A stretch of DNA of 64,000 nucleotides, from NCBI GenBank assembly GCA_016218065.1, contig JACRFA010000113.1, positions 6,458-70,457 of the forward strand. Direction: 5' to 3'. The position numbers were made by a program, and so were the translations under genes. A model generated the notes under the pieces. The model ran no database searches and was not told the origin of the DNA. It saw only the letters and a program-made list of their open reading frames with translations. This document shows positions 25,407 through 43,544 of this stretch, one piece after another. Numbering within the stretch: position 1 is the stretch's first letter; every line of letters starts with the position of its first letter. The stretch comes from Ignavibacteriota bacterium. GTDB lineage: Bacteria; Bacteroidota; Ignavibacteria; UBA10030; UBA6906.

Positions 25407-25571
25407 TTTGTTTCCGTGCTCGTAGAGTGCGCTACGCGCACCGGATCAGCACGATGCAAACTAAATAAGGCGCGTAGCGACATCATGCACTCCTCCCGCT
25501 TTGCAAACATCCGCCTTTGAAATTAAATCTATTTCTAAGTCCTAAAGTATTCGAGTCGCTGTCGCATGACG

Positions 25572-25727
25572 TATAAACGTCTCGGCAAACAACGCCGCCG
25601 TTTTGCGAACTATTCAACGACAAATTCTCCGTGAGCAAAAACGGTGGAACGAGCACAACTGATCTTTTTATCGAGCTTCAACGTAACCATATCAAATGAG
25701 CGAGTGTCGTTGTTTGCTGTGTTAGCT
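25572..25727 (+). repeat. attC-like imperfect palindrome, copy a
   Basis: TATAAAC-gtctcg-GCAAACAACG ... CGTTGTTTGC-tgt-GTTAGCT. It has an inner stem CCGCCGTTTTGC/GCAAAAACGGTGG and a conserved core GAGCACAACTGA...TGAGCGAGTGTCG shared with copies b-d. Confidence 0.6.
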
Positions 25728-25850
25728 GCAGTGCACGGGCTGGCTCGAGCTCCGTGAAGTACCACCGACCAGGGTGTGGTTAATGCATCTTGACTGTCAT
25801 TGGAATTGAACCGCCTCAACTGCCAGAGAATTATACGGAAAATCGTATCA

Positions 25851-26949
<1,099 letters not shown>

Positions 26950-27024
26950 CCTGAACTGAAAATGAACAGAGCGCAACGAGTGGTAAGAAGATATGAACGA
27001 TAATGGCGAAAGAGAGAATTGAAC

Positions 27025-28065
27025 ATGAAAGCAACTGTAATGTACAGCGCCGGGGATGTTCGTGTTGAGAGCGTTCCCGATCCTCGCCTGCTGGAACCAA
27101 CCGATGCGATCGTCCGCATCACCCACGCCTGCATCTGTGGCAGCGATCTCTGGCCATACAAAGAAATGCAATCCAGCGAGCATGGCCGCCAGATGGGTCA
27201 CGAGTTTGTTGGTGTCGTCGACGCTGTCGGCGCTGATGTCCGCACGGTAAAGCGAGGCGACCTTGTCGTTGCGCCGTTTGCCTTCTCGGATGGCACTTGC
27301 GAATTTTGCCACGAGGGAATTCATACGTCGTGTGTGCACGGTGGGTTCTTTGGGGTCGGCATGGAGAATGTCGGAGGCGGACAAGCTGAAGCTGTGCGCG
27401 TGCCGTTGGCTGATGGAACTCTATTCAAGCTGCCGGTCGGGAAGGATGATGCGCTGATGCCGTCGTTGCTCACGCTTACCGACGTGATGGGCACAGGTCA
27501 TCATGCGGCTGTCACCGCAAGGGTCAGGCCCGGCAAGAAAGTGGCCGTCATCGGTGATGGTGCAGTCGGCTTGTGCGGAGTGATTGCTGCCCGGCGTCTT
27601 GGTGCCGAGCAGATCATCATATTGGGTCGTCATCCAGGCCGGATTGCACTGGCAAGGGAGTTCGGCGCAACAGATGTTGTAGGCGAACGCGGCAACGAGG
27701 CAATTGAATGTGTGCGGGAGTTGACGGGCAGTTTTGGCGTTCACTCTGTGCTTGAGTGCGTAGGTACCGACCAGGCCATGCGGACAGCAATTGGCATTGC
27801 CCGCCCTGGCGGCGCCATCGGTCGCGTGGGTGTGCCGCACTACGAGGAGATTCCGAACGCGCAACCGTCGTTTTACGGGAACATAACCGTAAGCGGCGGT
27901 CCTGCACCTGTCCGCTCCTACATCGAAGAACTTCTGCCCGACATTCTTGAAGGCAGGATTGAGCCGGGTCGCGTGTTCGATCTGGTTACGGGGATCGACT
28001 GCGTACCCACAGGCTACCAGGCGATGAACGAGCGCAAGGCGATCAAGGTCATGATCACATTCTGA
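27025..28065 (+). CDS. zinc-dependent alcohol dehydrogenase (MDR family)
   Basis: Catalytic zinc motif CGSDLW...GHEFVG, structural zinc Cys cluster (C..C..C), Rossmann motif VIGDGAVG. Confidence 0.88.
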   Translation: MKATVMYSAGDVRVESVPDPRLLEPTDAIVRITHACICGSDLWPYKEMQSSEHGRQMGHEFVGVVDAVGADVRTVKRGDLVVAPFAFSDGTCEFCHEGIHTSCVHGGFFGVGMENVGGGQAEAVRVPLADGTLFKLPVGKDDALMPSLLTLTDVMGTGHHAAVTARVRPGKKVAVIGDGAVGLCGVIAARRLGAEQIIILGRHPGRIALAREFGATDVVGERGNEAIECVRELTGSFGVHSVLECVGTDQAMRTAIGIARPGGAIGRVGVPHYEEIPNAQPSFYGNITVSGGPAPVRSYIEELLPDILEGRIEPGRVFDLVTGIDCVPTGYQAMNERKAIKVMITF

Positions 28066-28080
28066 GGACTTGTCTGAACA

Positions 28081-28659
28081 ATGAGAAACGTCATCATACT
28101 CGGTGCAAGCGGCAACATAGCGAAACATGTCGCTGATACTCTAGTACTGGAGAATAACATCGCCCTGACCCTATTCGTTCGCAGCAAGCAGAGGCTAAGG
28201 AATAAGGATGTCTCCAAGTGCCGGATCGTTGAAGGTGATGTCCTGAACTTCAACCAACTCAAGGAAGTCATCAAAGGTCAGGACATTGTGTACGCGAACC
28301 TTGCGGGAGATCTGGAGGCAATGGCAAAGAACATTGTGAAAGCGATGAACGAAACAGGAGTGAAGAAACTGATCTTTATCAGTTCCATAGGAATCTATGG
28401 TGTTCCCTTACGACCAGTGTTGAAACCTTACCGGAAAGCTGCTGATGTGATCGAAGCATCTGATCTTGAATACACTATTCTGAGACCAACCTGGTTTACC
28501 ACTGCTGATGAAGTGGATTATGAGATAACGAGAAAGGGTGAACCGGAGAAAGGATCAGTCATTTCACAAAAAGGCCTGGCGACATTCATTGCAGCAATCA
28601 TAAGATCTCCCGAGAAATATGTCCGTGAAAATCTTGGAGTGAACAAACCGAATTCCTAA
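28081..28659 (+). CDS. NAD(P)-binding atypical SDR / NmrA-like protein
   Basis: 192 aa with the N-terminal Rossmann motif VIILGASGNIAKH. Visibly AT-richer than the neighbouring genes. Confidence 0.7.
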   Translation: MRNVIILGASGNIAKHVADTLVLENNIALTLFVRSKQRLRNKDVSKCRIVEGDVLNFNQLKEVIKGQDIVYANLAGDLEAMAKNIVKAMNETGVKKLIFISSIGIYGVPLRPVLKPYRKAADVIEASDLEYTILRPTWFTTADEVDYEITRKGEPEKGSVISQKGLATFIAAIIRSPEKYVRENLGVNKPNS

Positions 28660-28686
28660 AGCGGCCTTACTGAAGGAGTCTCTGAC

Positions 28687-29871
<1,185 letters not shown>

Positions 29872-29993
29872 GGTGGTAATTCCGGAAATGATTGTGATAA
29901 GTTGTAATCGTTCCGTATCATGTATTTGTCGGCAGGACGAAAAGCTTGTTCTACATTGCAGAAGACACATATACATTCCTAAGTTCAATCGAC

Positions 29994-30887
29994 ATGAAAC
30001 GCTTTGAATCAATCAGCGAGTACTATCAGTTTGGCGGGTATCCACCGCCTGAGAACCCCCTATTGAGTTTAAGAATTCTGGATGTGACAACTCCAATTAC
30101 AGAAGACATTGAGTTTGTCTGTGATTTCTATTGCATCGGTTTCAAAAAAATCAAATCCGGTGAACTTATTTATGGGAAAACGAGATACGATCACGATAGA
30201 GGCTGGATGTACTTCGTTAAGCCCGGTCAAATACTTAAAGCAAGGAAATTACAATTTGCTGAAAAGGGTTTTGCTATTCACCTTCACGAAGACTTCTTGA
30301 TGGGGCATCCCCTGTTCTCAGAAATCAAGAAGTACAACTTCTTCGACTACGAGACACATGAGGCCCTTCACCTTTCACCAAGGGAAAAAGAAATCATGTG
30401 GTCGCTGTACCACAAAATGGAGAGGGAGTACCACGACAATCCCGATGAGTTCAGCAAGTCTATCATCCTCTCACACCTCGATTCAATGCTGAAGTATGCG
30501 CAGCGATTCTACAAGAGACAGTTCATCGACCGGAAGCCGATCTCGGGCGTAACGGTGACAAAATTCAATGCGACTCTGGACGGACACTTTGCGAAGGGAA
30601 ACGCAGAAGAAAAAAGACTGCCGACAGTGAATGCATTGGCATCGCAACTGAATCTATCGCCGAAATATTTGAGTGACCTACTGAAACAGGAGACCGGCAA
30701 AACAGCATTGGAGTTGATACATCTGTACGTGATTGCTGAAGCCAAGAACTTGCTCGTTGCCGGTGACCGAAGCATTTCTGAAATCGCGTACTCTCTGGGT
30801 TTTGAAAATCCTCCTTACTTCTCGCGTCTGTTCAGAAAGGAAGTGGGGATGAGTCCTAAGGAATACAATAACCAACCTCTAAATTGA
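29994..30887 (+). CDS. AraC-family transcriptional regulator
   Basis: C-terminal double HTH (LNLSPKYLSDLLKQETGKT ... ISEIAYSLGFENPPYFSRLFRKEVGMSPKEY). An ATG at 29994 is preferred over the TTG at 29946. Confidence 0.88.
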   Translation: MKRFESISEYYQFGGYPPPENPLLSLRILDVTTPITEDIEFVCDFYCIGFKKIKSGELIYGKTRYDHDRGWMYFVKPGQILKARKLQFAEKGFAIHLHEDFLMGHPLFSEIKKYNFFDYETHEALHLSPREKEIMWSLYHKMEREYHDNPDEFSKSIILSHLDSMLKYAQRFYKRQFIDRKPISGVTVTKFNATLDGHFAKGNAEEKRLPTVNALASQLNLSPKYLSDLLKQETGKTALELIHLYVIAEAKNLLVAGDRSISEIAYSLGFENPPYFSRLFRKEVGMSPKEYNNQPLN

Positions 30888-30972
30888 CTCAATCTCTCCA
30901 CGCACCATTCTCTTTAATTTTTGGGCCACGCCGACCATATGTGTGTAACCCGATTATCCCGACGTGCATTGC

Positions 30973-30991
30973 AGCTAACTACCGTAACCAC
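30973..30991 (+). repeat. left half-site of an attC-like element (truncated)
   Basis: GCTAAC-taccgt-AACCACG has the same box/spacer/box layout as the left arms of copies a-d. No convincing right arm is present, and it abuts the OmpA-tail fragment. Confidence 0.35.
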
Positions 30992-31007
30992 GCCACACCC
31001 AATTCAG

Positions 31008-31094
31008 TTACCCAGCTTCCTGCGACACGACTTTGATTTCGACGCGACGGTTCGGCGCTTGATTCTGCGGGTCGTGGTCGGCTTGGACGAATGG
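31008..31094 (-). pseudogene. orphan 3'-terminal fragment of an OmpA-like domain gene
   Basis: Own translation of the minus strand: PFVQADHDPQNQAPNRRVEIKVVSQEAG followed by TAA. This is homologous to the last ~28 codons of 37376-39088. There is no upstream coding continuation, because the RibD_C-like ORF stop lies at 31095. Confidence 0.65.
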
Positions 31095-31436
31095 TTACGC
31101 GATACCTGTGGCCTTGCTTCGCGGAACTTGGTAGCGTAACTCCGCGAAGCCTGTGCCCACCTGATGGACAGATATCAACTGCAATGGAGGGCTTGTGATG
31201 CGACGCGGGAATAGTGGCTTGCCTCTGCCCAGAGTGACTGAACCAATCTGCACGATAACCTCGTCCAACAAGTTCGCATCATAGAACTGCCCCGCCAGGT
31301 CGCCACCACCAACAATCCAGATGTTCTTTTCACCTGTCGCTGCGTAGTACTGAGTTCTCATTCCGTACCTACACCAATGGATGTGATTCGTGCCGCGGGC
31401 GGCAACCCCGCTCATTGGCCGGCAGGCGGTTGCCAC
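31095..31436 (-). pseudogene. truncated dihydrofolate-reductase-like (RibD C-terminal domain) gene remnant
   Basis: Only the C-terminal ~70 aa (NIWIVGGGDLAGQFYDANLLDEVIVQIGSVTLGRGKPLF...) match the RibD_C/DHFR-like family. The N-terminal ~100 aa are missing, and the 5' part of the ORF overlaps the VOC gene end. Confidence 0.55.
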
Positions 31437-31798
31437 AGTTCTATTTTGTTTCCTTCCGGATCGATGACCCAGGCAAACTTTCCAAACTCGGATTCATCGA
31501 TCTTTTCGAGCACGTTGCAGCCTTCTTCCCGCAAGACTTTGACCAATCCGTGAAGGTCTTCAACTCTGTAGTTGATCATGAAGGAAGCAGAGCTCGGAGC
31601 AAAGTGATCGCTCTCCTGCGGATCGATTAACCAGGCAGTTGTACCTGCAACCGGCTTGCCCTCGGCGTCGGTCCAATCAAAAGCCGCTCCGCCCCAGACT
31701 TGGACATCGATTCCCAAATGCCGCTTGTACCAAGTCTGCAGTGATGGAGCATCTTTGGCCTTGAAGAAGATGCCTCCAATGCCAGTGACTCGCCTCAT
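31412..31798 (-). CDS. VOC-family (glyoxalase/bleomycin-resistance fold) protein
   Basis: Start chosen at MRRVTGIGGIFFKAKD; the ORF track extends to 31876, into the repeat. The C-terminal FAWVIDPEGNKIELWQP is typical of VOC proteins. Confidence 0.8.
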   Translation of the reverse strand: MRRVTGIGGIFFKAKDAPSLQTWYKRHLGIDVQVWGGAAFDWTDAEGKPVAGTTAWLIDPQESDHFAPSSASFMINYRVEDLHGLVKVLREEGCNVLEKIDESEFGKFAWVIDPEGNKIELWQPPAGQ

Positions 31799-31836
31799 GA
31801 AACCTCCTCTGTGGGTGATGATGTCGTTGAACATGG

Positions 31837-31982
31837 CTGCTAACGTGTGCACAAACCACGCCGTGCCGCACTCCATGCTTTTCTACCAAATGAGTGCGGC
31901 ATGGAACGAGCACAACTGAGTTTGAACTGAGCTTCAACATTGCCTTTCAAATGAGCGAGTGTCGTGGTTTGTGCTGTCAGGC
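31837..31982 (+). repeat. attC-like imperfect palindrome, copy b
   Basis: CTGCTAAC-gtgt-GCACAAACCACG ... CGTGGTTTGTGC-t-GTCAGGC, with perfect 12-bp inner boxes at 31849-31860 / 31963-31974. Inner 12/13 stem CCGTGCCGCACTC/GAGTGCGGCATGG; conserved core GAGCACAACTGA...TGAGCGAGTGTCG. Confidence 0.6.
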
Positions 31983-31995
31983 GAAGTGCGAAAAG

Positions 31996-33072
31996 TCACT
32001 TCAACTGTTGTCCCCTTCCTATGCTTGCTGATACACTTCCAAACGAGCCCTCTGCGAGCGCTGATAACAATGAAATCTCACCAGCAAGGCAGACGGATGC
32101 AACAATTTCACCTAACCGAGACACAGCATATCCTCGTCTAGTTTCATCTGGGTTGCACCCCAATCGATCTAGATTCTCTCTGCAAGGCTTGTAGTCAGTG
32201 CCGCCGCCAACGACGCCAAGTTCCATACACGGTAAAGTTAGCACGAATCGTACTCCCTCGTCGACACGGCTGCCAACTAGCGTTGCACTACTTGACTCGA
32301 CGATCTCAGCGACATCTTGACCAAAGGGGATAAACATCGCAGCTAACGAATTCGCAACATGTGCGTTTTGATGATAAGGAGCGCCCGCAAGGCTTGAGCC
32401 CAATTGTAGCTTGGCCACAGCCAGATCCAAAAGTGGTTCAACACCAACATGAAGCACATGCTTCAGGATGTCGGAAGTGAGGATGACTTCTGCAATAACA
32501 CCCAAACCTCTGCCATCCAAGACGTTGATAGCAGCAGGCTTCTTGTCAGAACACAGGTTTCCAGAAACCCCCAGACATTTTGTTTGGGTCACCTTGCACA
32601 CACGACGCACGATTGAATCTGAAAGTATCGTGACTGCATTGCCCCCTAGCGCATCGCCGACATCAAAGCGTAGCCTAAGATAAATGTACTGTCCAAGAAT
32701 GTATGGTCTTGATTCGATTAGCCTGACATGCTTGCTCTGTCCCTCTGGCCATTCGTTGATTTCCAACTGAATCTCCTGCAGTTTCCGAAAAGCCCTGACG
32801 GCATCCTTGACGTTCGTTGCGGCGAATACTGGCGCCCGCGTCATGGACTTGCGATAAACACAAGTTGTAGAACCGCCAGAGAGGGTTATAGCCTTGCAGC
32901 CGCGGTTGATCCCTGCAACCAAGCCTCGTTCGGTCGTAGCCAGTGGTACCTCTACTGTCGCATCGATATTTTCCCCGTGAATAACAATGGGTGATGAAAG
33001 AGAATACGGTACAGGATGAACGCCCTTTTGGCGCTCAATGAACGATTGTATTCTTCTGCTTCGTATTGTCAT
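31996..33072 (-). CDS. HMG-CoA reductase class-I homologue (short form, atypical C-terminus)
   Basis: By-eye alignment to the class-I catalytic domain: [21 protein letters not shown] (cf. [20 protein letters not shown]), GDALGGN (GDAMGMN), [20 protein letters not shown] ([20 protein letters not shown]), [18 protein letters not shown] (NAHAANIVTAIYIACGQD), GVVGGGT. The start is set at the ATG at 33072, which forms an ATGA overlap with the kinase stop; the ORF track start is 33111. Confidence 0.75.
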   Translation of the reverse strand: [358 protein letters not shown]

Positions 33073-33944
33073 GTCCAGAGACCTTGCTTCATCTCCACTG
33101 GATTTGCCCATCTAGCATTAGGGTCAGGCATTATTGCTTTGCATAGTACTGTCGGCAACGAACAAGATGGCGCGAATTGCCTTAGTTGGTTACTCAACCC
33201 ATCGAAATCCACCGAGTACCTTGCCGCGACAGGATCGTCTGAACTCAGCACGAATTCGGGCAATGATCCTGTAAGTAGTTGTATTCCGACTATCCCGAGC
33301 GAGTACAAATCTGCACGGATGTCAACATCTCCAGCATGACAAAATTGTTCAGGGGCCATGTATGGTATTGTTCCAGCCCAGTAGGCAGGTCGATGCTCAA
33401 GATGCGCCCCGAATTTTGCTAGGCCAAAATCAGCAACTAGGTAGACTTTTCGGCTATCATCAATAAGGATGTTATCTGGTTTGAGATCCCTATGCACGAT
33501 CTCATTATCCCACAAGTGACCAAGCGCAGACAGCAACTGACTTAGGACTATTCTGACTTCAGAGGAATCGAATCGCTCGGTTTGGCGCAGTACCGATGAC
33601 AATGAACCTCCTTCCACCCAGTCCATTGTGAAATATGAAAATCCTGATTTTGTCCCAGAGTCGTGGACGCGAACAATGTTTTTATGTCTGAGCCTAGCAA
33701 GTAGCTCGAATTCGCGTTCAAACCTGATCCGCGCGTCATTGTCAGGCACGAACTCTGACTTCAAAATCTTCAGTGCGAAGTAATCTCCATCGCGCAGATT
33801 TGAGACTTTGTAAACCGCCCCAAATGTTCCTTGTCCAACGAAATCTAGGACTCTGTACAAATCCTGAAAAGCTATCATGACTGAACGCACCAGAACATGA
33901 TGGTTTCCTCTCGTAACCATTACTGTAACATCACTTGCGCTCAT
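33069..33944 (-). CDS. Hanks-type Ser/Thr protein kinase, stand-alone catalytic domain
   Basis: GQGTFGAVYKV (Gly loop), FALKILK (catalytic Lys), HRDLKPDNILID, DFGLAKF, YMAPEQ. ATGA overlap with the upstream permease-like gene. Confidence 0.88.
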   Translation of the reverse strand: MSASDVTVMVTRGNHHVLVRSVMIAFQDLYRVLDFVGQGTFGAVYKVSNLRDGDYFALKILKSEFVPDNDARIRFEREFELLARLRHKNIVRVHDSGTKSGFSYFTMDWVEGGSLSSVLRQTERFDSSEVRIVLSQLLSALGHLWDNEIVHRDLKPDNILIDDSRKVYLVADFGLAKFGAHLEHRPAYWAGTIPYMAPEQFCHAGDVDIRADLYSLGIVGIQLLTGSLPEFVLSSDDPVAARYSVDFDGLSNQLRQFAPSCSLPTVLCKAIMPDPNARWANPVEMKQGLWT

Positions 33945-35326
33945 GGGGCAACTCCTATACCACGCAGAAAGTCTCCGACGGCCGGTATTATCTTGCCTGT
34001 AACTGCTGCTGATGCATAAAAAGACATGTAGAGCACGCCGAGTTCGACGCGAAGAAACCTGTTCATGAACCCGGCCAGAAGAGCCATCGCGAATGTTGCC
34101 AAGATACCTACCACACCAGCCTCATTGTAAGCCAGTACAATCGCTAAACCAACAAATGCGCTTATCAATGTTTCCATGGAGATGAAGCGCAACGTCCACG
34201 TGCACCAAGTCCTCGCCCTTCTAAACGCGAGAAAATAGGAAATTGAAATCCCTACGAGGGCGCCAAGAACGGAGAACATGGCAATTGCATTTGTTGAGAG
34301 AAGTGTATGAATGTTGTTCACAGGCTCTATTGTGAACCTCGGGGGAGCATTAAAAAGGGGAGCTGCTGGCCCAAGAGCCATTGGACTAAGCGGCAGCCCA
34401 ACTGCTATCAGAGGAATGAGCGTTTCGGCTATGTACGTCGAGTTATTAACTGCGTCCATGGCTACAATCTTATCGAGCAACCTCTTCAGTGCCGAACCTC
34501 TGATTTTTTCTGCAAGTCCCCCCACAAGCACCGTCATACCAACAGGGCTCAAAACAAAGAAGAAGCTCGTGATAGCCGCGGCAACTGAAGTCAGACCTAA
34601 CTGCCTTCGACCTAGAACGCGCATAGGATTCATACTTTGGAGCTCAGTCCCCTCTCGAACAATATTTACAGATGAAGCGCTGTTGCTACGAAGTGATCGT
34701 GATACCGGCGGCGAGAGAAGAACGAAAATGTCTATTATCATCGGCCCGAGGGCAATGCCCATGAAGAAAGAGATGAACATTGAATGACCCACAAGCTTAG
34801 ACGACAACTCCTGTGTTGCTCCAATAAAGGTTGCAAACGGAAGAACAGCGAGAACCGCCGCCCACCTAGCTTTGGAGAAGAGTGCGATTAGCAATGCCCC
34901 CAGAAGGAATGCCCATGGCGCATAACTCCGAATCACATTCCCGAACGGTTGAAGAATGCTACCGAAGACCAGTGCAATTGGTAAAGCAATGACAACACCA
35001 ACTACGGATGCAGCAAGCATCTTCCGTAGCAAGATGTGCGGTATGCCGTATCGTCTCCCGACCTCGCAGGCATCGAGGAACGGGACAGTCATCGTGCTAC
35101 CGGGAATGATCGCGATGGCCGACGGTACTGAATTTGAAGTTTCCATTGCAGCGATTGCTGCCATGAAGAAGCAAAGGATGACCTCTGGTGGGATATTTGC
35201 CAAGACAAGCAAAAGAATAATTGGAGCAATGCTCGCAGTCTCGTCAGTGCCGGGAATTAGACCGATGATAAAATAGAGTAACGACGCCACTACTGCGGCC
35301 AAGAGCGCGAAGACAATGAGTTCCAT
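33941..35326 (-). CDS. polytopic membrane protein, TctA/DUF112-like (tentative)
   Basis: 461 aa with at least 10 hydrophobic helices. The motifs IGLIPGTDETASIAPIILLLV and AIAIIPGSTMTVPFLDA resemble the repeated G-x-(L/I)-PG motifs of TctA large subunits. Assignment is from memory of the family, not a search. Confidence 0.5.
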   Translation of the reverse strand: MELIVFALLAAVVASLLYFIIGLIPGTDETASIAPIILLLVLANIPPEVILCFFMAAIAAMETSNSVPSAIAIIPGSTMTVPFLDACEVGRRYGIPHILLRKMLAASVVGVVIALPIALVFGSILQPFGNVIRSYAPWAFLLGALLIALFSKARWAAVLAVLPFATFIGATQELSSKLVGHSMFISFFMGIALGPMIIDIFVLLSPPVSRSLRSNSASSVNIVREGTELQSMNPMRVLGRRQLGLTSVAAAITSFFFVLSPVGMTVLVGGLAEKIRGSALKRLLDKIVAMDAVNNSTYIAETLIPLIAVGLPLSPMALGPAAPLFNAPPRFTIEPVNNIHTLLSTNAIAMFSVLGALVGISISYFLAFRRARTWCTWTLRFISMETLISAFVGLAIVLAYNEAGVVGILATFAMALLAGFMNRFLRVELGVLYMSFYASAAVTGKIIPAVGDFLRGIGVAP

Positions 35327-35327
35327 A

Positions 35328-35762
35328 TCAGATCGTCCTTTCTGCTTCTGATGAAGCTGCGTCAGCTAGTGCTATCTGGGCCAACTGCTCGGAAATGCCG
35401 GCATGCTCGGCTATGTAAAGGACATCTACAGGTCCACCCTTTAGATTCTTTAGCTCGCTGGAGGCATCCGTATCGAATGCAGCAAGAACGTTGCGTAGAT
35501 CGGAACTAGAAGGAACATCTTCATTTACTTCGCGGTGAGTGCCGAAACGACGATTTATCATGAATGAAAATGCGAGGATTGTGATAAGGGCAAGTCCTAG
35601 TGCTGTGGCTACTCTAGTTTGGGGAGTGAATTCAAGTAAAGCCCCAAGTTTGAGCACACCACCGTAGACAACTAGGCCAAAAAACGCAGTTAGAGTGATT
35701 CCGATGCCAAGCGAACGACCGTTTACAGTCTCCTGCATTACTTTGTAAGTCCTTCCTTTCAT
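35328..35762 (-). CDS. small membrane protein (two TM helices plus a soluble acidic tail), first gene of the four-gene operon
   Basis: 144 aa. TM segments are LGIGITLTAFFGLVVYGGVL and VATALGLALITILAFSFMI. Its stop lies 1 nt before the next ATG. No family recognised; it may play a TctB-like role. Confidence 0.5.
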   Translation of the reverse strand: MKGRTYKVMQETVNGRSLGIGITLTAFFGLVVYGGVLKLGALLEFTPQTRVATALGLALITILAFSFMINRRFGTHREVNEDVPSSSDLRNVLAAFDTDASSELKNLKGGPVDVLYIAEHAGISEQLAQIALADAASSEAERTI

Positions 35763-35920
35763 ATCGTTTGTCCCTTTCTGTCGTTGATGGAGTTTTCAGT
35801 CGCTACTCGTTAGGCTTGTATGAAGCCACCAGTTGGTGATCAGGGGTAGCGACTCGAGCCCCGTGTTTATTCCTGTCGGCTTTTGTTGAAATCTTGTTCA
35901 ACATGACTTTGGGCGTTTTG

Positions 35921-36124
35921 GCTAACGTCTTCGCAAACTACGTCCTCGCTTTTTCATAACCGAGTGAGGCGTGGAGTGAACACAACTACACTGAGCGAGC
36001 GTCGGCCTGCCCGCCATGCTTCACCTTTTGGCGGGCATGTGTGCGAGCCTTACCAAATTCGCTTTCTGAATCCCGATGTTTCTCATCGGGATGTGTGAAC
36101 GCCGATGCTTGCATTTGTAATGTG
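35921..36124 (+). repeat. attC-like imperfect palindrome, copy c (expanded, right arm decayed)
   Basis: GCTAAC-gtcttcgc-AAACTACG ... CGATGCTT-gcattt-GTAATGTG. It is collinear with copy d apart from two inserted hairpins (GCCCGCC/GGCGGGC at 36009-36036; CCCGATG/CATCGGG at 36072-36090). Confidence 0.55.
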
Positions 36125-36170
36125 CAGTTGTTTTTCCGCCGAAACTCGGGTTGGCAAAACCTTATTGCTG

Positions 36171-36947
36171 TCATCGTGATTGGACTGGGTTTGTTTCCAT
36201 TGTACAAAGCCTGACAAACTTGACACCAAGTTCAGTCATGAGAATAGACCTTGGCTCAGACACATTGACATCGACATCGAATTCGCTTCCATCGTAATCG
36301 CGAGTATGCATATGGCTCCTCGACGGAGATACGTCAACTTCCACATCCGGAACATCCCATTTGATGGTGCCGAGAGCTAACAGACTGGAAATGAAAGCAT
36401 TCAGACTCTCTTCCGCGTGACCTGTACTTGTTTGGATGTCAATGATTCGTAAGGAGAATGTGGTGAGCTTAGTTTCGTCGCGTTTCCTTTCTCCTGAATA
36501 CTTCTCATCGTAAGACTGCCGCTTCTTTTCAAGCGCCTTGAATATGGACTCGAGTAGTTGAGCTTCGGCTGCCGTGATAGTTTTCAATATTTCGATGGCA
36601 TTCTGTTCGAGGAGTACTCTACTGTCCGTTGTCACAATATTTGCGATGAGCCGAGCCCATTTGTCTTGAAGATACTCGTCTTCTTCCAATGAACTGTACT
36701 CGATGAGCGGCGCCAATGTTCTAAGTGAGATTCTCTTTGGGTCAAGGTTATGCTTGCTAAGATATACCTGAGCACTAGAAAATATTTTTACTTGGTTCTT
36801 GAATCTCCGAAGCCTGACTTGGTCCGCGATTAAGCCGCTTGTTTCGTCAAGAGAGGGTCCAAAAAGTGCCTTGAGAAGAGCCTCGCTCTTGTCAAGCAGT
36901 TGTTTTGGGATATTGAGGCTATCGATTACTTTACCCAGGCTTTCCAT
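36171..36947 (-). CDS. Abi-alpha / DUF4393-family protein (abortive-infection-associated family)
   Basis: 258 aa. The pattern ...LKALFGPSLDETSGLIADQVRLRRFKN...LAPLIEYSSLEEDEYLQDKWARLIANIV... matches the Abi_alpha family hallmark (acidic stretch followed by LQxxWAxLLAN). Assignment is from memory of the family. Confidence 0.65.
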   Translation of the reverse strand: MESLGKVIDSLNIPKQLLDKSEALLKALFGPSLDETSGLIADQVRLRRFKNQVKIFSSAQVYLSKHNLDPKRISLRTLAPLIEYSSLEEDEYLQDKWARLIANIVTTDSRVLLEQNAIEILKTITAAEAQLLESIFKALEKKRQSYDEKYSGERKRDETKLTTFSLRIIDIQTSTGHAEESLNAFISSLLALGTIKWDVPDVEVDVSPSRSHMHTRDYDGSEFDVDVNVSEPRSILMTELGVKFVRLCTMETNPVQSR

Positions 36948-36994
36948 TTTCGTCTCGGCACCGATTGTCAGAGATTAGATGGCAAAAACAATTG

Positions 36995-37146
36995 CACATA
37001 ACGTCTTCGCAAACTACGCCACGCCGAAATCCTCGCTTTTTACAACTGAGTGAGGCGTGGAGTGAAGACAACTAAAGTGAGCGAGCGTCGGCTTGTGTGC
37101 GAGCTTTACCAAATGTGTGAACGCCGTAGTTTGACGTTGTTATGTG
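36995..37146 (+). repeat. attC-like imperfect palindrome, copy d (best preserved)
   Basis: CACATAAC-gtcttcgc-AAACTACG (36995-37018) ... CGTAGTTT-gacgtt-GTTATGTG (37125-37146). The outer AAC/GTT triplets are intact, and the core GAAGACAACTA...GTGAGCGAGCGTCGGC is shared with copy c. Confidence 0.6.
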
Positions 37147-37375
37147 TTCGTACACGCCAGCTTGTACACACTCGATAAGTTACGCGCCGGAGTTGGTCGC
37201 CGAATGCTCACGACTTCCACTCATGCAAACTGCTTCTTGATGCAAACGACTTTTTGGCAACCACAACACTCGATTCACTTCTCTCAAAAAACAATTCGCG
37301 AGTAGACGGGCAAACTGTTTTGTGGCTGGCGCGTATGACATCATAACTACAGTACGTACGCCACCCCCAACTCTC

Positions 37376-39088
37376 TTATCCCGCTTCCGGCGGCACCACT
37401 TTAATTTCCACGCGACGATTCAACGCCTGATTCATCGGATCGTCAGAGTTCGCAGGCTCGTCCCATGCTCGTCCTTCAATCACAAACTTGTTCGGATCGA
37501 ATTTGTATTTCTCAATCAGCGCCTTCTTCACGGCTGCGGCTCGATCGGTGCTGAGTTGCTTCACGGCATCGTAGGGAACTCTTCCCTTCATGGAATTATC
37601 CGTATGACCCTCCACGATGATCACGCATTTTTCAAACTGACCGGCAACACGCGCAACACGCTCCAGCGTTGCATCCACGCCCGGATCATAGAGTTTCTTT
37701 TCGATGATATTCCCGAATTCATCGCGCGCTGCTTCGTGCAAGTTTGCACTGTTCGGATAGAAGTTGATTCTGATCGTCTGCGTGAGAATCGGAGACTCGG
37801 CGCTGACTTTTTCGTACGATTGCGGCGTGAAGGACGTCCCGCTTTCGTACTTCTGATGCGCGAATGTTCCCTTCGCCTGCAGGTCTTTGATGAACGAAAA
37901 GTCCATCACGCGATCGAATTCCACCGGCGCGTCGATGCGGCCAAGTTCGCGATACACAAGCGATGCGCTCTTCCACGAGCGCTCGAAGTTGGTCGGGTTG
38001 CTTTGATTCAGGAAGAACTGCACGTTCTCGCCGAAGTTCGTCGAGTGCGCGTCGCCCATCATGCCTTTGATGTCCTCCGGCTTCATGCCGAATGCATCCG
38101 CCATCCATTGCGCGGCCTGTTCCGCATTTTGCTTGACGTAATCCATTCCTTCAAACACACCGGCGACAAATCCTTTGACGATGTCCGGATGGTCGCGGGC
38201 AAAATCGGCGCGAAACGCGTACACGTCAGCGATGACTTTGTTCGCTTCCGCCGTTGTGCTGAGAATTCGCGTTTTGGGCAATCGCTTTGGAATATTGTAA
38301 ATGTCCGGCGCCCAGCTCACGACCGCATCGATCTTCCGGTCGGCAACAAAAGCGGCGGCGGCTTCAAACGCAGTCGTCGTATATTTCATCTTCACATCGC
38401 CAACATTCAACCCGGCGCTCAGCAACAGCGTGGTGATGAAGTACTCGCTCGGGCTATTCTGCGCGCACACTATGGTTTTCCCTTTGAGGTCGCGCACCGT
38501 TTTGATTGCGTCACGTGACACAATCCCATCGCCTCCGCTTGACCAATCGATTTGCTGCACGATGCGCGGCGCCGTTCTACTGTCGCGCATCAACTCCGGT
38601 GCAAACAGCACCATCATATCTTCTGTACCCCACAACGCGTGAACGTTGCCCGATGTGTACGCGTCGCGTGCAGTGATCGGGTCGTCGATCAACACCATCT
38701 CCACCATGAATCCGTATTTCTTGTAGAAGATCGATTCCTTGTTCGGCTTCGTGCCGTGGTTCGCCGCGATGATTGGCAGCCATCCAATCCAAACATTGTA
38801 GCTGAACTTGACCGTCTTGTCTTTCCATGCGTAGCTGCTCACGCCTTTTACCGGCGGCAGCTTGTCCGCGGGAATGTACTTGTACTCCTTCACCGTCGTC
38901 ACGTTCGTGAGGTCTGTCGCTTCGACTTCGCTCTCCGTGTCCGTCGATGATGTTCCGAACGGCAACTTGGCTCCATCCTTCCCCATCAAGAGCCACACAC
39001 CCAACCCGATGAGTCCAAGGACGAGAATGATGGAAATGAAAATGCCGAACGGCGTAAGTTTCGCTCGTGAACCTTGTTCGTCTGCCAT
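37376..39088 (-). CDS. membrane-anchored NitT/TauT (NMT1/SsuA-like) substrate-binding protein fused to a C-terminal OmpA-like domain
   Basis: 570 aa. An N-terminal TM anchor (FGIFISIILVLGLIGLGVWLL) is followed by a periplasmic binding-protein fold (VWIGWLPIIAANHG ... GKTIVCAQNSPSEYF). The C-terminal OmpA-like module reads IIVEGHTDNS...LSTDRAAAVKKAL...NRRVEIKV. Confidence 0.8.
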   Translation of the reverse strand: MADEQGSRAKLTPFGIFISIILVLGLIGLGVWLLMGKDGAKLPFGTSSTDTESEVEATDLTNVTTVKEYKYIPADKLPPVKGVSSYAWKDKTVKFSYNVWIGWLPIIAANHGTKPNKESIFYKKYGFMVEMVLIDDPITARDAYTSGNVHALWGTEDMMVLFAPELMRDSRTAPRIVQQIDWSSGGDGIVSRDAIKTVRDLKGKTIVCAQNSPSEYFITTLLLSAGLNVGDVKMKYTTTAFEAAAAFVADRKIDAVVSWAPDIYNIPKRLPKTRILSTTAEANKVIADVYAFRADFARDHPDIVKGFVAGVFEGMDYVKQNAEQAAQWMADAFGMKPEDIKGMMGDAHSTNFGENVQFFLNQSNPTNFERSWKSASLVYRELGRIDAPVEFDRVMDFSFIKDLQAKGTFAHQKYESGTSFTPQSYEKVSAESPILTQTIRINFYPNSANLHEAARDEFGNIIEKKLYDPGVDATLERVARVAGQFEKCVIIVEGHTDNSMKGRVPYDAVKQLSTDRAAAVKKALIEKYKFDPNKFVIEGRAWDEPANSDDPMNQALNRRVEIKVVPPEAG

Positions 39089-39885: not shown

Positions 39886-40539
39886 TTACTTCGTTTCTTT
39901 TCTGTTGTTGATAGATCCGACCGAAATTTTGTTTTCATCGGTGATGATCGCGACCGCTTTGACGAGCTGCTCCTCTTCATCGATTTTCTTCTTCAACCAA
40001 TCCTCGTACTCATCGGCGTCGTTCTTCTGCTGCTTCTTGAGTTCGCGCATGTGTTCTTCGATGACGCCGATTTTCTGTTCGAGGGAAGCGATCTCATTGT
40101 CTCGCTTGATTGTTCGTTCGCGCAGTTTCTTCTGAACAAACTCCTCATACACATCGAGCGCCCGGTCACGATTGACTGCATCGGTGAGAATATCTTCCAG
40201 CGGGATTTTGTTCTCGTGAAGAACGCGCACCAGCGCTTCTTTTGCCTCACGTTTGCTCAACCGGGCGATGTCCTCGGACTGCATGTACGTTGCAACGGAT
40301 TTTGCGCTCCAGCCATGCGCGAACGCCGGAACGTTCATCGTCTCAAAGATCTTCTCGAACGAAACTGAGCGCTCAGGCGCGGATTCGCCCGACGTCAGAC
40401 CCTTGGTCTCGGCAAGCAGCGCTTGAAGCGAAATCGTTCGCGTTTGGATAACATCGACTTCGGGAATGTTCGTTGCGTCCGCAAAGACGATGAGGCCCGT
40501 GCTTGAGACAACCTTCTTGAGCAGCTCGCCAACTCTCAC
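39886..40539 (-). CDS. hypothetical protein with a charged C-terminal coiled coil (PspA-operon member)
   Basis: 217 aa. It overlaps the upstream AAA+ gene by 4 nt. The C-terminal half is rich in E/K heptads (EEHMRELKKQQKNDADEYEDWLKKKIDEEEQL). No family recognised. Confidence 0.55.
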   Translation of the reverse strand: MRVGELLKKVVSSTGLIVFADATNIPEVDVIQTRTISLQALLAETKGLTSGESAPERSVSFEKIFETMNVPAFAHGWSAKSVATYMQSEDIARLSKREAKEALVRVLHENKIPLEDILTDAVNRDRALDVYEEFVQKKLRERTIKRDNEIASLEQKIGVIEEHMRELKKQQKNDADEYEDWLKKKIDEEEQLVKAVAIITDENKISVGSINNRKETK

Positions 40540-42281
40540 ATGTACCTCCGCAATTCATCGATCCGCGTTTCAATCTCTTCCGGCGAAAGATCGGCGTACG
40601 CTGTCGGGAGAAAACTCGCGTCGGTGCATTCCTTGACCGCAACCAGGTCCATGTACTCCAGCTTCTTTGTTTGCGCATTCGGCTTCGCCAAACGCACAAC
40701 TTCCGCGAGCACTTCGGCAAGAGGGCGCGACCCTTGCGAGTCGAGCTCATGCAGGCGCACCGCGCGTATCAGCATCGCCTCGATTTCGTTTCCGCCAAAC
40801 ACCGCTTTCGCGGGGAGCGACGGAATGTCCTCCGGCTTCACCGGGAACTTCAGCTTCTTCGCAATCGCAACAAACATCTCTTTATACTCCTGCGGCGACT
40901 GCGGAGGAAAAAGCGGAACGTGAACATCCAATCGTCCTTGCCGTTTCAAATCGACTTCGAGCAGATCAGGACGCGACGTCGCAAACACCCAGATGATCTT
41001 TCCGCGATTGAGCGTGTTGGACATTTCTTTCGCAAGCATCGCGTACACGCGGCCCGATAATCCCTGATCGCCGCCGCCCGACTCGCGCTTTCCCGTCATC
41101 TGATCTGCTTCGTCAACAAACACCAGCACTTGCCCGAGCGCCCGCAGTATGGCAAAAATACGTTCCAGGTTTCCTTCTGTTGCGCCGACCCACTTGTCGC
41201 GGAAATTTTTCAGCACAACGCACGGAATGCCAAGCTCGCCCGCCCAGCATTGCACGACGAACGTCTTTCCTGTTCCGATGCGTCCGGTGAACAGGTAACC
41301 CATCGGCAACGCGTGCGATTTTCCTTCGCGAATGAGCTTCGCATCCTGACGCAGCCACGTCTTCACCGCCTCATGCCCGGACACAAGATCGAGCGTGAAC
41401 GGCGACTCCATGAACTCCAGCAGTCCCTGACATTCTTTCTCGATGAGATCCTTCTTCATCGATCTCACAAACTGATCGGTCACTCGCTGGCCGTTGTTGA
41501 CAAGAGTTGAGATTGCCGTGCGGGCGCCGATGCGGCTGAGGCCCGTCATGCGTTTCGCGAGAACATCCATGCTCATGTCGCATTGTTCCGTCAGACTCGG
41601 CAACGATGTGCGTTGCAGCCATCGAATGTACTCGCCCATTTCGATTTCACTCGGCAACGGAATTTCAATCTTCGCGCTGTGAGGATTTTCGGCGATGAGT
41701 GAATTGATGTCCGTGAGCTTCTCGGTGATGAGAAACGTCGCGATGTTGCTGCCGAGAATTGTCGGATCGTTGGCCCAGCTCAGCACTTTCACGACATGCG
41801 AGCCGAGTTCGCCGGAGAGATTCAGCGGGTCGCCGCGCGGGACAATGAACTGCGCAAAATCGAGAATCACCGCGACCTTGAGCTTGAAGTCTTTCTCCTG
41901 CTTACTCTTGATCGCTTCGAGGTTGAGCGTGCGCAGCAAGTACAGATCGATCAACTCCAGCGCCTTCGCAGGCTCGCGTGTATTGAATGTTGCCGGTCTG
42001 ATGGCTTCCGGTCCGGCGAGCGACGACAACCACTCGGACCAATCCTTGTCTCCCTGCGTCACGCGAATGCCTTTACCGCGATCGTACGTGATGACGGTGT
42101 CGTATCCTTCCAACATCACCTCCTGAAGAAATTTCTTCAGCGGAAGAAACGAGGGTTCAACCGACGCGTTGCGCGTCGGAACAACATCGAACGTGTTACC
42201 GAAGAGAACAAACTGTGCGACGGAACCCGAACGGAAGAGTTCTCTGAGTTTTTGCGCCCACAAAGGGAGAGTTGATGGCAT
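40536..42281 (-). CDS. AAA+ ATPase (classic-clade AAA domain in the C-terminal half)
   Basis: 581 aa. Walker A GRIGTGKT, Walker B LVFVDEAD, and second region of homology ATSRPDLLEVDLKRQGRLD. The N-terminal ~300 aa have no Walker motifs. Confidence 0.85.
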   Translation of the reverse strand: MPSTLPLWAQKLRELFRSGSVAQFVLFGNTFDVVPTRNASVEPSFLPLKKFLQEVMLEGYDTVITYDRGKGIRVTQGDKDWSEWLSSLAGPEAIRPATFNTREPAKALELIDLYLLRTLNLEAIKSKQEKDFKLKVAVILDFAQFIVPRGDPLNLSGELGSHVVKVLSWANDPTILGSNIATFLITEKLTDINSLIAENPHSAKIEIPLPSEIEMGEYIRWLQRTSLPSLTEQCDMSMDVLAKRMTGLSRIGARTAISTLVNNGQRVTDQFVRSMKKDLIEKECQGLLEFMESPFTLDLVSGHEAVKTWLRQDAKLIREGKSHALPMGYLFTGRIGTGKTFVVQCWAGELGIPCVVLKNFRDKWVGATEGNLERIFAILRALGQVLVFVDEADQMTGKRESGGGDQGLSGRVYAMLAKEMSNTLNRGKIIWVFATSRPDLLEVDLKRQGRLDVHVPLFPPQSPQEYKEMFVAIAKKLKFPVKPEDIPSLPAKAVFGGNEIEAMLIRAVRLHELDSQGSRPLAEVLAEVVRLAKPNAQTKKLEYMDLVAVKECTDASFLPTAYADLSPEEIETRIDELRRYM

Positions 42282-42287
42282 GCGTTC

Positions 42288-43459: not shown

Positions 43460-43544
43460 CTCTATCACTCCATCACTCTACTCCGGGATTGTTGGATTCC
43501 CTGCTCTTTCTCATTATCTTTCACACGCGAACGACTTATCCTCC

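Follow-up and report, generated by a model that had tools for sequence, protein, structure and literature searches.

Described systems related to the locus

The mvaAB genes of Pseudomonas mevalonii form a mevalonate-catabolism operon, in which a degradative HMG-CoA reductase (HMGR) is encoded together with HMG-CoA lyase. The TctA family, for its part, is classified among the permeases of uptake transporters. Integron cassettes have been documented to carry defence systems (10.1101/2024.07.02.601719), and human HMGR is regulated by phosphorylation next to its catalytic histidine (PMC7503714). The following sections compare with these systems a four-gene operon located in the middle of a 64-kb stretch of DNA from an Ignavibacteriota bacterium (the window).

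Anatomy of the operon

The sequence-only reading of this DNA had described four minus-strand open reading frames packed with overlaps or a 1-nt spacer, and inspection of the sequence confirms both their positions and their junctions. A small membrane subunit of 144 residues (35328-35762) is followed by a TctA-like polytopic permease of 461 residues (33941-35326), a stand-alone Hanks-type Ser/Thr protein kinase of 291 residues (33069-33944) and a short class-I-type HMGR homologue of 358 residues (31996-33072), the junctions being, in that order, TGA-T-ATG, ATGA and ATGA. An alternative in-frame ATG lies upstream of the HMGR start, at 33111, and is the less likely start because of the N-termini of the homologues. 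In the 160-nt upstream leader (35763-35922, minus strand), an Rfam scan found no RNA element, and no convincing promoter was seen, the promoter-like sites not exceeding shuffle expectation.

The small subunit, which is the partner of the permease, has hydrophobic segments at approximately residues 17-37 and 51-71 and an acidic C-terminal tail (12 D/E vs 4 K/R), so that hydropathy and tail charge agree with the two transmembrane helices and acidic tail proposed earlier. It has no match in Pfam, NCBIfam or PADLOC, and it is homologous to the small proteins encoded upstream of TctA-like genes in HMGR/HMG-CoA-lyase operons (hhalign 98.9%, E 2.8e-17). The permease scores 61.2 bits against PF01970 (cut-off 28.9), carries the motifs GLIPGTDET and IIPGST that had suggested its family, is 40-48% identical to a large subfamily of approximately 450 residues, and retains every one of the 65 columns that are invariant across a 20-sequence alignment. 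Its AF2 model is all-helical (pLDDT 84.6), and no solved structure matches it by sequence or by fold. As in the TctABC tripartite tricarboxylate transporters, a permease above the Pfam TctA gathering score is preceded by the gene of a small membrane subunit; in contrast to them, the window subunit combines two transmembrane helices with a soluble acidic domain of no matching family, and no TctC was found with the pair among the window ORFs scanned. The absence of TctC, phosphatase (PP2C) and FHA partners, as claimed beforehand, holds for the approximately 28 larger window ORFs scanned, which cover 1-15 kb and 53-64 kb in part.

The kinase matches PF00069 with 158.8 bits, and every motif attributed to it was located: the Gly loop at 37, K59, D153 of HRD, D172 of DFG, and APE at 197. 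Its matches to the structures of PknB and RSK are generic, and it is conserved in the three sister operons described below.

The HMG-CoA-reductase homologue

The product of the last gene matches PF00368 with 282 bits, so all three Pfam families that had been put forward for profile searches are recovered. It was aligned to 6hr7 and 1dq8, and it is approximately 40% identical to archaeal enzymes. The earlier assignment to class I stands as to type, but it missed that the TIGR00533 score (278.8 bits) falls under the equivalog cut-off of 441.8 and that the catalytic His is absent. Like the NADPH-dependent class I reductases of archaea and eukaryotes, the protein keeps the fold family, the DAxGxN and GGGT motifs, and the Glu, Lys, Asp and HMG-binding residues; E559, R590, S684, D690, K691, K692, K735, H752, N755, D767 and L853 (human numbering) are all conserved, their roles being taken from PMC7503714. 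Unlike them, it lies outside any isoprenoid context, and it lacks approximately 50-70 N-terminal residues corresponding to the N-domain, including the region of the CoA-stacking Tyr479. The only residue of the HMG pocket and catalytic set that is lost is His866, the His of the CoA thiol, which is replaced by Ser348 (codon at 32029-32031, minus strand).

This loss is a feature of the family, in which it affects eight of the nine members. The position is occupied by S/S/T/S in the four kinase-type operons and by T/T/T/V in loci with a cyclase fusion (see below), and it is His in locus L169 and in each of the 12 canonical comparators. Since Ser or Thr also stands here in loci that have no Hanks kinase, the residue is not specifically a phospho-site.

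A widespread relative of the membrane pair

The operon had been considered to have no described counterpart. This is correct for the exact four-gene set, which is undescribed and conserved, but it overlooks the fact that the small subunit and the TctA-like permease form a widespread two-protein module, of which the window copy is a divergent member. HMGR adjoins this pair in 61 of approximately 80 genome loci, and the reductase is there of the degradative class-II type, often accompanied by HMG-CoA lyase (representatives of the neighbour clusters score 467 bits against TIGR00532 and 464 bits as lyase). The same arrangement occurs on annotated plasmids (Rhizobium etli pRsp8C3a and Roseomonas mucosa p2), and no paper was found in which the TctA-like pair is assigned to HMGR/HMG-CoA-lyase operons. 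The neighbourhood of the widespread pair thus points to mevalonate catabolism. The sequence-only reading had set metabolic contexts with a TctC partner against a role in defence; metabolic contexts do exist, in this distant branch only, and no conserved TctC gene was found there among the recurrent neighbour clusters of the approximately 80 loci.

The window operon shares with the mevalonate-catabolism operons a homologous small subunit and TctA-like permease directly beside an HMGR-family gene, as well as a conserved HMG pocket. It differs in that its enzyme is of class-I type, N-terminally short and His-less, in that it includes a Hanks kinase and follows another gene order, and in that lyase and substrate-responsive regulator are missing. 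Searches of the 64-kb window for HMG-CoA lyase, HMG-CoA synthase, class-II HMGR, AtuA and the cyclase-GHMP homologue were empty, in keeping with the claim that it holds no other mevalonate-pathway gene.

Sister loci

The identical four-gene order, kinase included, is found on three unrelated metagenome contigs (L001, L003 and L004), and because it recurs on independent contigs the grouping is more than chance. Between the window and L001, amino-acid identity ranges from 40 to 76% per gene, and in three of the four genes synonymous sites have reached saturation. The family has a patchy distribution and is extremely rare, with only two clusters at 50% identity matching out of 1.84 billion representatives, and no viral contig was found to carry a sister locus.

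The small-subunit gene is present in all sister loci, and what varies is the slot between permease and HMGR, which holds the Hanks kinase in the window and, in L168, L174 and L176, a fusion of a class-III cyclase with a mevalonate-kinase-like domain. Foldseek supports the fold of the cyclase half (E 2e-10, TM 0.7-0.8), and the other half of the fusion matches TIGR00549 with 45-60 bits. Sister loci also encode HMG-CoA-synthase-like proteins.

Several loci of this branch have neighbours of defence type, an association that extends to only about five loci and includes some weak matches. A PycTM-like gene belongs to the L175 operon (PADLOC E 1.6e-10; the match is not reproduced by Pfam), a CapP-like gene (53.6 bits) and HTH regulators adjoin L170, DpdB-like genes (84 bits) stand beside L005, and a LmuB/Ppl-like ATPase with weak matches (LmuB 34 bits, Ppl 29 bits) stands beside L168. 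Together with the Abi_alpha gene of the window, these contexts look conflict-like. The class-III cyclase domain, the PycTM-like membrane protein and the CapP-like protease with its HTH partner recall Pycsar/CBASS-type systems with CapH/CapP; however, the window operon has no cyclase, cNMP-binding effector or CapHP genes, and the sister cyclase, joined as it is to a mevalonate-kinase-like domain, gives no match to the PADLOC PycC models.

The cassette and its insertion

The framing of the operon by two attC-like repeats proved to be real. One repeat (31841-31989, minus strand; hairpin dG -30.5, z = -4.0 against shuffles) closes the four-gene cassette on its 3' side, and another (35923-36124, minus strand; z = -3.3) marks its upstream boundary; the start-to-start spacing of 4082 nt gives the cassette length. 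Further copies lie at 36999-37146 and 25575-25734. The label attC-like is fair because the repeats have common ends (AAAC-NCG...CGN-GTTTG...ACGTTA) and form long, imperfect hairpins, of which three fold clearly better than shuffles (the third with z = -2.2) and the fourth does not (z = -1.25). Between the repeats at 36999-37146 and 35923-36124 lies a single-gene Abi_alpha cassette (36171-36947, minus strand; PF14337 67.8 bits), as had been noticed.

Both cassettes belong to a 13-kb insertion (24181-37376) that carries the array and other cargo and whose GC content, 0.45-0.50 in the block against approximately 0.52-0.58 elsewhere, is mildly lower, as the earlier reading had it. The insertion splits an ABC-transporter operon, cutting off the SBP-OmpA gene (37376-39088) from its own permease (23182-23985) and ATPase (22385-23179), and partial copies of the 3' end of the SBP gene lie at 24181-24334 and 31012-31066. 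Its remaining cargo is metabolic or detoxifying (aldo-keto reductases, ADH, glyoxalase and EamA). The only tyrosine recombinase seen in the window is XerD-like (8319-9221), and the array is considered CALIN-like because neither an integron integrase nor an attI site was found. As in integrons that carry phage-resistance cassettes (BRiCs; 10.1101/2024.07.02.601719), the unit lies between attC-like hairpin repeats and its co-oriented array includes an Abi_alpha cassette; it departs from them in its unusual size (4.1 kb, four genes), in the lack of an identified integrase or attI, and in its position inside an ABC-transporter operon. Taken together, the four genes make up one operon, conserved and horizontally mobile, and this operon is a single cassette, 4.1 kb long, in an array of attC type.

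Possible roles of the operon

Two hypotheses had been offered, a defence module and a module for uptake plus reduction, and both survive, since the former gains from association and the latter from homology. We tentatively favour, with a probability of about 0.4, a metabolite-coupled signalling or switch module that is probably conflict-related. The membrane pair would transport mevalonate or a closely similar hydroxy acid; the HMGR homologue would bind this ligand with NAD(P)(H), either as a sensor or as an enzyme restricted to the aldehyde/alcohol half-reaction, which is independent of CoA; and the kinase would link the state of the metabolite to protein phosphorylation. The conflict-related role, which might be anti-phage, abortive-infection-like or a stress switch, is proposed by association only. 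Judged from sequence, the module may represent a new type of metabolite-coupled signalling or defence.

The strongest homology evidence, that of the pair with degradative HMGR/HMG-CoA-lyase operons, points to ordinary metabolite transport, and this counts against the conflict-related reading, as do the metabolic or detoxifying cargo of the insertion, the empty search for phosphatase and FHA partners among the ORFs scanned, and the failure to find sister loci on viral contigs. The main rival is plain accessory metabolism, which corresponds to the uptake hypothesis of the earlier reading. Here the pair would take up mevalonate or a hydroxy-carboxylate related to it, the HMGR homologue would oxidise or reduce this compound without CoA (for example, mevalonate to mevaldehyde or free HMG), and the kinase would only tune activity, as AMPK/SnRK1 does on eukaryotic HMGR. 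The homology of the pair, the intact substrate-pocket and hydride-transfer residues, the redox and detoxification enzymes of the insertion, the regulation of human HMGR by phosphorylation near its catalytic His (PMC7503714), and the coherent chemistry of the HMG-CoA-synthase-like and mevalonate-kinase-like enzymes of sister loci all speak for it. We nevertheless hold it to be rather unlikely: the window branch lacks the lyase and the XRE-cupin, sigma-54/PAS and MocR-type regulators typical of catabolic operons, the loss of His argues against canonical HMG-CoA/mevalonate conversion, the family is extremely rare and patchy, and cyclase, PycTM-like and CapP-like partners with defence neighbours are unexpected for nutrient catabolism. 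The same sister enzymes, HMG-CoA-synthase-like, HMGR-like and mevalonate-kinase-like, are encoded within a single operon and follow the order of mevalonate-pathway biosynthesis, and a membrane transporter is present in every locus, so that the operon could instead make a mevalonate-derived signal or chemical weapon under control of the kinase, the pair being its exporter. This is improbable, given that the window operon has neither synthase nor small-molecule kinase, that tailoring enzymes are absent, that a His-less HMGR is expected to be poor at HMG-CoA reduction, and that TctA-family proteins are annotated as permeases for uptake.

Classical abortive infection of the PD-T4-6/Stk2 type would make the kinase alone both sensor and effector, with the other three genes as passengers. 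PADLOC, which has no match for those three proteins, matches the kinase to mad6 and to PD-T4-6 (191.6 bits), the 292 positions of model PDLC04042 being matched near full length, and the neighbouring gene is Abi_alpha; however, this match is what any Hanks kinase gives, PknB and eukaryotic kinases being matched as well. As translational coupling ties the four genes together and their order is jointly conserved on three further contigs, and as the cyclase fusion can replace the kinase while the other three persist, a kinase acting alone is very improbable.

For the signalling module that we favour, the kinase would have as candidate targets the flap of the HMGR homologue, the acidic tail of the small subunit or host proteins. 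The combination of a Ser/Thr protein kinase with an HMGR of class-I type, Ser-rich in its C-terminal flap around the place normally taken by the catalytic His, recalls the AMPK/SnRK1 control of the eukaryotic enzyme (PMC7503714), but it is a resemblance only, the equivalent of Ser872 being Gly in the window protein.

Organisation and conservation of the operon

The operon is made up of four minus-strand genes, which encode a small membrane protein (35328-35762), a TctA-like permease (33941-35326), a Hanks-type Ser/Thr kinase (33069-33944) and a homologue of HMG-CoA reductase (HMGR; 31996-33072), joined in that order by TGA-T-ATG, ATGA and ATGA. These reading frames, junctions and domain assignments had been proposed in a sequence-only reading and are borne out; in profile searches TctA (PF01970) scores 61.2 bits, Pkinase 158.8 bits and HMG-CoA_red (PF00368; cut-off 27) 282 bits. 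The small protein was found by ORF scanning and has no match in the family scans, and its two hydrophobic segments and acidic tail agree with the two TM helices and acidic tail described earlier. The kinase (291 aa), which had been called intact, has a complete set of catalytic motifs: the glycine loop (G37), the VAIK lysine (K59), HRD (D153), DFG (D172) and APE at 197. An Rfam scan of the 24-38 kb region gave no credible RNA, and promoter- and terminator-like sites are no more frequent than expected from shuffled sequence.

With the HMGR homologue as query, 5.8 billion proteins yielded just three close relatives, at 59, 52 and 50% identity, after which the next matches are ordinary archaeal HMGRs at about 42%. 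The sequence-only reading had proposed a search for co-occurrence of the four genes, and the metagenome contigs of all three relatives (L001, L003 and L004), which are unrelated to one another, indeed have the same order: small protein, TctA-like permease, Hanks kinase, HMGR homologue. Between the window and L001, identity is 40% for the small protein, 76% for the permease, 56% for the kinase and 59% for the HMGR homologue, and synonymous sites are saturated in three of the four genes. Comparison of a profile of this clade with the representatives of 1.84 billion clusters set just two clusters, at 614 and 493 bits, apart from the rest, of which the best reached 352 bits. An exact look-up of the window HMGR product gave no record, a scan of metagenome contigs with the clade alignment yielded, among the matches listed, only canonical archaeal HMGRs of at most 42% identity, and a scan of viral contigs for the permease found nothing. 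By these comparisons, the four genes form a genuine operon that selection maintains and that is extremely rare.

The membrane pair and its catabolic relatives

The permease matches PF01970 (cut-off 28.9) over profile positions 1-414 of 423 and belongs to a large TctA subfamily of about 450 aa, with 40-48% identity, that is found in Firmicutes, Actinobacteria, Planctomycetes and Proteobacteria; none of the 65 columns that are invariant in a mixed alignment is changed in it. Among the clustered neighbours of about 80 genome loci of this subfamily, a small protein of about 150 aa lies directly upstream in 69 and an HMG-CoA reductase is a neighbour in 61, followed by HMG-CoA lyase (26), a sigma-54/PAS regulator (26), AtuA (20) and an XRE-cupin regulator (18). 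The small protein of the window is homologous to the small proteins of these loci (hhalign probability 98.9%, E 2.8e-17). Representatives of the widespread group identify its reductase as the degradative class-II enzyme (TIGR00532, 466.9 bits; cut-off 259.95) and its lyase as HMG-CoA lyase (464 bits). From the counts and the homology together, the two membrane proteins form a conserved module, and its dominant association is with the chemistry of mevalonate catabolism.

The widespread operon (L009-L087, with annotated plasmids L177, 5102-9300, and L178, 5150-9227) combines the class-II HMGR, the two-TM protein of about 150 aa and the TctA-like permease, with HMG-CoA lyase, AtuA and regulators as optional genes, and its hosts include Bacillales, Clostridia, Negativicutes, Actinobacteria, Planctomycetes, Pseudomonas and alphaproteobacterial plasmids. 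On plasmids of Rhizobium etli and Roseomonas mucosa the annotated order is degradative HMG-CoA reductase, hypothetical protein and tripartite tricarboxylate transporter permease, and in both an HMG-CoA lyase gene and a gene of the PLP-dependent aminotransferase family adjoin or lie close by; the latter is probably a MocR-type regulator.

Pseudomonas mevalonii grows on mevalonate by means of its class-II enzyme (PMC7503714), and the simplest inference from gene context is that the membrane pair transports mevalonate or a close analogue. Literature searches returned nothing relevant on TctA with mevalonate or on bacterial mevalonate transporters, and no paper describing the association of the TctA-like pair with HMGR. 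This strong and apparently undescribed genomic link extends across Firmicutes, Actinobacteria, Proteobacteria and Planctomycetes and, if confirmed, would make the pair a candidate for the long-unidentified bacterial mevalonate transporter.

The pair differs from tripartite tricarboxylate transporters, which have a TctC binding protein: as had been noted from the sequence, there is none among the scanned ORFs of the window, and TctC is likewise absent from the conserved neighbours of the roughly 80 homologous loci. The comparison with TctB is that of a small membrane protein directly upstream, with two TM helices and a soluble tail but no family match. The window also differs from the mevalonate-catabolic operons, with which it shares the small subunit and a TctA-like permease of the same subfamily, in that its HMGR homologue scores only 24.4 bits against the degradative model (cut-off 259.95), and it contains no HMG-CoA lyase homologue. 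Thus, of the earlier claim that the operon has no described counterpart, the novelty of the exact four-gene set stands, but its membrane pair has a widespread metabolic relative, with the class-II HMGR in 61 of about 80 loci. A fold search with a confident permease model gave the citrate symporter CitS as the best PDB match, which is not significant (probability 0.63, TM 0.22), so that no structure-based assignment to a transporter superfamily is made.

An HMGR homologue without the CoA-handling histidine

The HMGR homologue is of class-I type, as the sequence-only reading had it, and about 40% identical to archaeal enzymes, with an N-terminus 50-70 residues shorter and a score of 278.8 bits against the class-I equivalog TIGR00533, which is below the cut-off of 441.8. 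What had gone unnoticed is that it lacks the catalytic histidine. Aligned with 12 canonical HMGRs, and with residue roles taken from PMC7503714, it conserves, apart from the histidine, every residue of the HMG pocket and catalytic site (human numbering): E559, R590, S684, D690, K691, K692, K735, H752, N755, D767 and L853. Of the class-I catalytic set Glu559/Lys691/Asp767/His866, the window protein has E48, K177 and D253, and the histidine position is occupied by Ser348. In the canonical enzyme, His866 hydrogen-bonds and protonates the CoA thiol (PMC7503714). At this position, the four operons with a kinase have S, S, T and S, and four related loci with a cyclase fusion instead of the kinase have T, T, T and V; H was found only in L169, an archaeal locus, and in all 12 canonical comparators.

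HMGR mutants of this histidine (His381/His865) lose the CoA-dependent steps and retain mevaldehyde reduction. The strict conservation of the remaining residues argues for a ligand site that would still be working. Given the missing histidine in an otherwise conserved site, we infer that the protein either acts on a mevalonate-like acid in an aldehyde/alcohol reaction that does without CoA, or serves as a ligand sensor. HMGR is among the best-studied enzyme folds and, if confirmed, homologues that lack the CoA-handling histidine alone would be predicted to carry out such a reaction or to act as sensors.

Two other interpretations of this protein were considered. The notion of a canonical lone HMGR serving isoprenoid synthesis was rejected, as the histidine is missing, the score is below threshold and the pathway genes are absent. 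The possibility that the Ser/Thr at the histidine position is a phospho-site of the kinase was downgraded, and a phospho-acceptor role is not claimed, because Thr occurs there also in loci that have no Hanks kinase.

Sister loci and the exchange of the signalling enzyme

Neighbour joining of the permeases places the window together with L001, L004 and L005. This group is close to L168, L170 and L172 and separate from the large catabolic clade; this branch has neither the lyase nor a substrate-responsive regulator. Its sister loci vary in their partner genes. In L005, from a Gemmatimonadaceae MAG, the order is small protein, TctA, HMGR homologue and a 724-aa protein, and in L168/L169, from a Hodarchaeota MAG, it is small protein, TctA, a 706-aa protein, HMGR homologue and an HMG-CoA-synthase-like (HMGS-like) protein. 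The others are metagenomic: L174 has TctA, a 715-aa protein and the HMGR homologue, L176 a 671-aa protein and the HMGR homologue, L172 the small protein, TctA and a 738-aa protein, L175 the HMGR homologue, an HMGS-like protein and a 189-aa PycTM-like protein, and L170 has HTH and CapP-like regulators followed by the small protein, TctA and a 459-aa protein.

The proteins of 670-740 aa (L168, 5506-7626; L172, 2889-5105; L005, 8996-11170; L174, 991-3138; L176, 3-2018) are mutually homologous in the loci compared (L005, L168, L172 and L174), and that of L176 has the same motifs and a weak GHMP match. The family is tiny, with four matches in 5.8 billion proteins and about seven members seen. Its N-terminal domain folds like a class-III nucleotide cyclase (Foldseek E 2e-10, TM 0.7-0.8), with matches that include the uridylate and cytidylate cyclases of Pycsar; this domain alone was used, as the AF2 model is poor past residue ~400. 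The remainder is mevalonate-kinase-like (TIGR00549, 45-60 bits, below the cut-off). In L168, L174 and L176 this cyclase-GHMP fusion occupies the exact slot of the Hanks kinase of the window, and the system can therefore take one nucleotide-using signalling enzyme in place of another. Pycsar itself pairs a nucleotide cyclase with a cNMP-responsive effector, whereas a cyclase fold and a PycTM-like protein occur only in the sister loci, and family, PADLOC and homologue scans found neither component in the window operon.

The genes for the fusion always adjoin the TctA-like pair and/or a short class-I-like HMGR homologue. In L175, the PycTM-like membrane protein (2832-3401) is encoded 3' of the HMGR-like and HMGS-like genes in one operon; in L170, a CapP-like protease with an HTH partner (5569-6668) is divergent and upstream of the operon of the small protein, TctA-like permease and 459-aa protein.

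Possible roles of the operon

The reading that we favour, with a probability of about 40%, is that the operon is a metabolite-coupled signalling or switch module, probably conflict-related. The evidence for a conflict role is of an associative kind: an Abi_alpha cassette adjoins the operon, the L175 operon has the PycTM-like gene (PADLOC E 1.6e-10; a precomputed "PycTM (weak)" match was not reproduced by the current Pfam scan), CapP-like (53.6 bits) and HTH regulators lie beside L170, DpdB-like genes (84 bits) beside L005 and an LmuB/Ppl-like ATPase beside L168. In addition, partner genes shuffle among loci, the distribution is rare and patchy, and integron cassettes are known carriers of defence systems (10.1101/2024.07.02.601719). 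Against it, three of the four operon proteins have no PADLOC match, redox and detoxification genes are present in the rest of the insertion, the viral-contig scan found no viral copies, and the permease pair and enzyme pocket look fully functional for ordinary metabolite handling. Literature searches returned nothing relevant on anti-phage defence by HMGR or GHMP kinases. The reading ranked next, doubtful as it is, is metabolic: a mevalonate-like acid would be taken up and oxidised or reduced under the tuning of the kinase. Ranked lower, and improbable, is that a mevalonate-derived compound is made and exported. Last, and very improbable, comes an abortive-infection system of the kinase only, with the other genes as passengers. 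The window kinase does match the PADLOC model of PD-T4-6 (PDLC04042, 191.6 bits), but this match is generic, since the protein fits PknB_PASTA_kin (177.9 bits) and eukaryotic RSK structures as well; furthermore, PD-T4-6/Stk2 is a single-gene defence, whereas this kinase belongs to a conserved operon of four translationally coupled genes.

In the boldest reading, which is less likely than not, the operon would belong to a class of conflict or immune systems that has so far escaped notice and that is assembled from components of the mevalonate pathway. The dedicated permease pair and the histidine-less HMGR-derived protein would handle a mevalonate-type small molecule, which may act as a signal or alarm metabolite or serve as a metabolic sink, and an interchangeable nucleotide-using signalling enzyme (the Hanks kinase in the window, the fusion of class-III cyclase and mevalonate-kinase-like domains in sister loci) would turn the state of this metabolite into a response of the cell, for example growth arrest or abortive infection, with PycTM-like effectors in some sister loci. 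Mevalonate-type proteins are here wired to a protein kinase, or in the sisters to the fusion, in a cassette-borne setting near defence genes; if this were a defence or switch system, its metabolite-based logic would be without precedent among known bacterial immune systems.

The cassette array and the surrounding insertion

Four related repeats (25575-25734, 31841-31989, 35923-36124 and 36999-37146) have common inverted ends, such as ACATAAC...GTTATGT, with an inner AAAC-NCG/CGN-GTTTG pair, and inverted ...AAC/GTT... cores in all four. They form long imperfect hairpins, three of which are more stable than shuffled sequences (z = -4.0, -3.3 and -2.2) and one of which is not (z = -1.25). The units between them, namely Abi_alpha (36171-36947, minus strand, 67.8 bits), the four-gene block (4082 nt) and a glyoxalase unit, are co-oriented. 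Judged by inverted cores, hairpin folding and co-orientation, the repeats and their units can fairly be described as an attC-like cassette array, and the framing of the operon by attC-like repeats, proposed from the sequence, is upheld by the copies at 31841-31989 and 35923-36124. The four-gene unit resembles integron cassettes in being bounded by such repeats and in its shared orientation. No integron integrase or attI was found beside the array among the scanned ORFs of the window, where the sole tyrosine recombinase is XerD-like (8319-9221) and 15 kb away, and for want of an integrase the array is CALIN-like. A crude R''/R' hairpin scan for attC in L001, L003, L004 and L005 gave non-specific matches. 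The interval from 31841 to 25575 (6.3 kb) contains plus-strand AraC, two aldo-keto reductase, ADH and NmrA-like genes, which is atypical for a cassette.

The array directly adjoins an SBP-OmpA fusion gene (37376-39088), and the whole insertion separates this gene from its partners, an ABC permease (23182-23985) and an ABC ATPase (22385-23179). The 3' end of the SBP-OmpA gene recurs in partial copies, 80-89% identical to the gene's own segment at 37380-37746, at 24181-24334 and 31012-31066, that is, 13 and 6 kb from the gene, which suggests repeated insertion or recombination at this 3' end. The abutting array, the distant partners and the partial copies thus place the block within a 13-kb insertion that splits an ABC operon. 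The insertion is mildly AT-richer, which fits the earlier description of an Abi-alpha cassette beside the operon in AT-richer DNA, and its other cargo comprises EamA, two aldo-keto reductases, Zn-ADH, an NmrA-like protein, AraC, glyoxalase and a RibD_C fragment. The truncated RibD_C ORF (31095-31436) retains only the final ~65 residues of the domain and overlaps the end of the glyoxalase-family gene (31412-31876). The longest glyoxalase ORF begins within an attC-like repeat, and for this reason the true start is probably an internal Met (MRRVTGIGG...).

On the SBP-OmpA side, the minus-strand stretch 39886-44534, 3' of a PspA/IM30 gene, encodes a weakly DUF5677-like protein, a 581-aa AAA ATPase and proteins of 389 and 325 aa without a family match. 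Just beyond the insertion lies a full-length LigD (19806-22205), with primase-polymerase, phosphoesterase and ligase domains, which is ordinary chromosomal NHEJ equipment.
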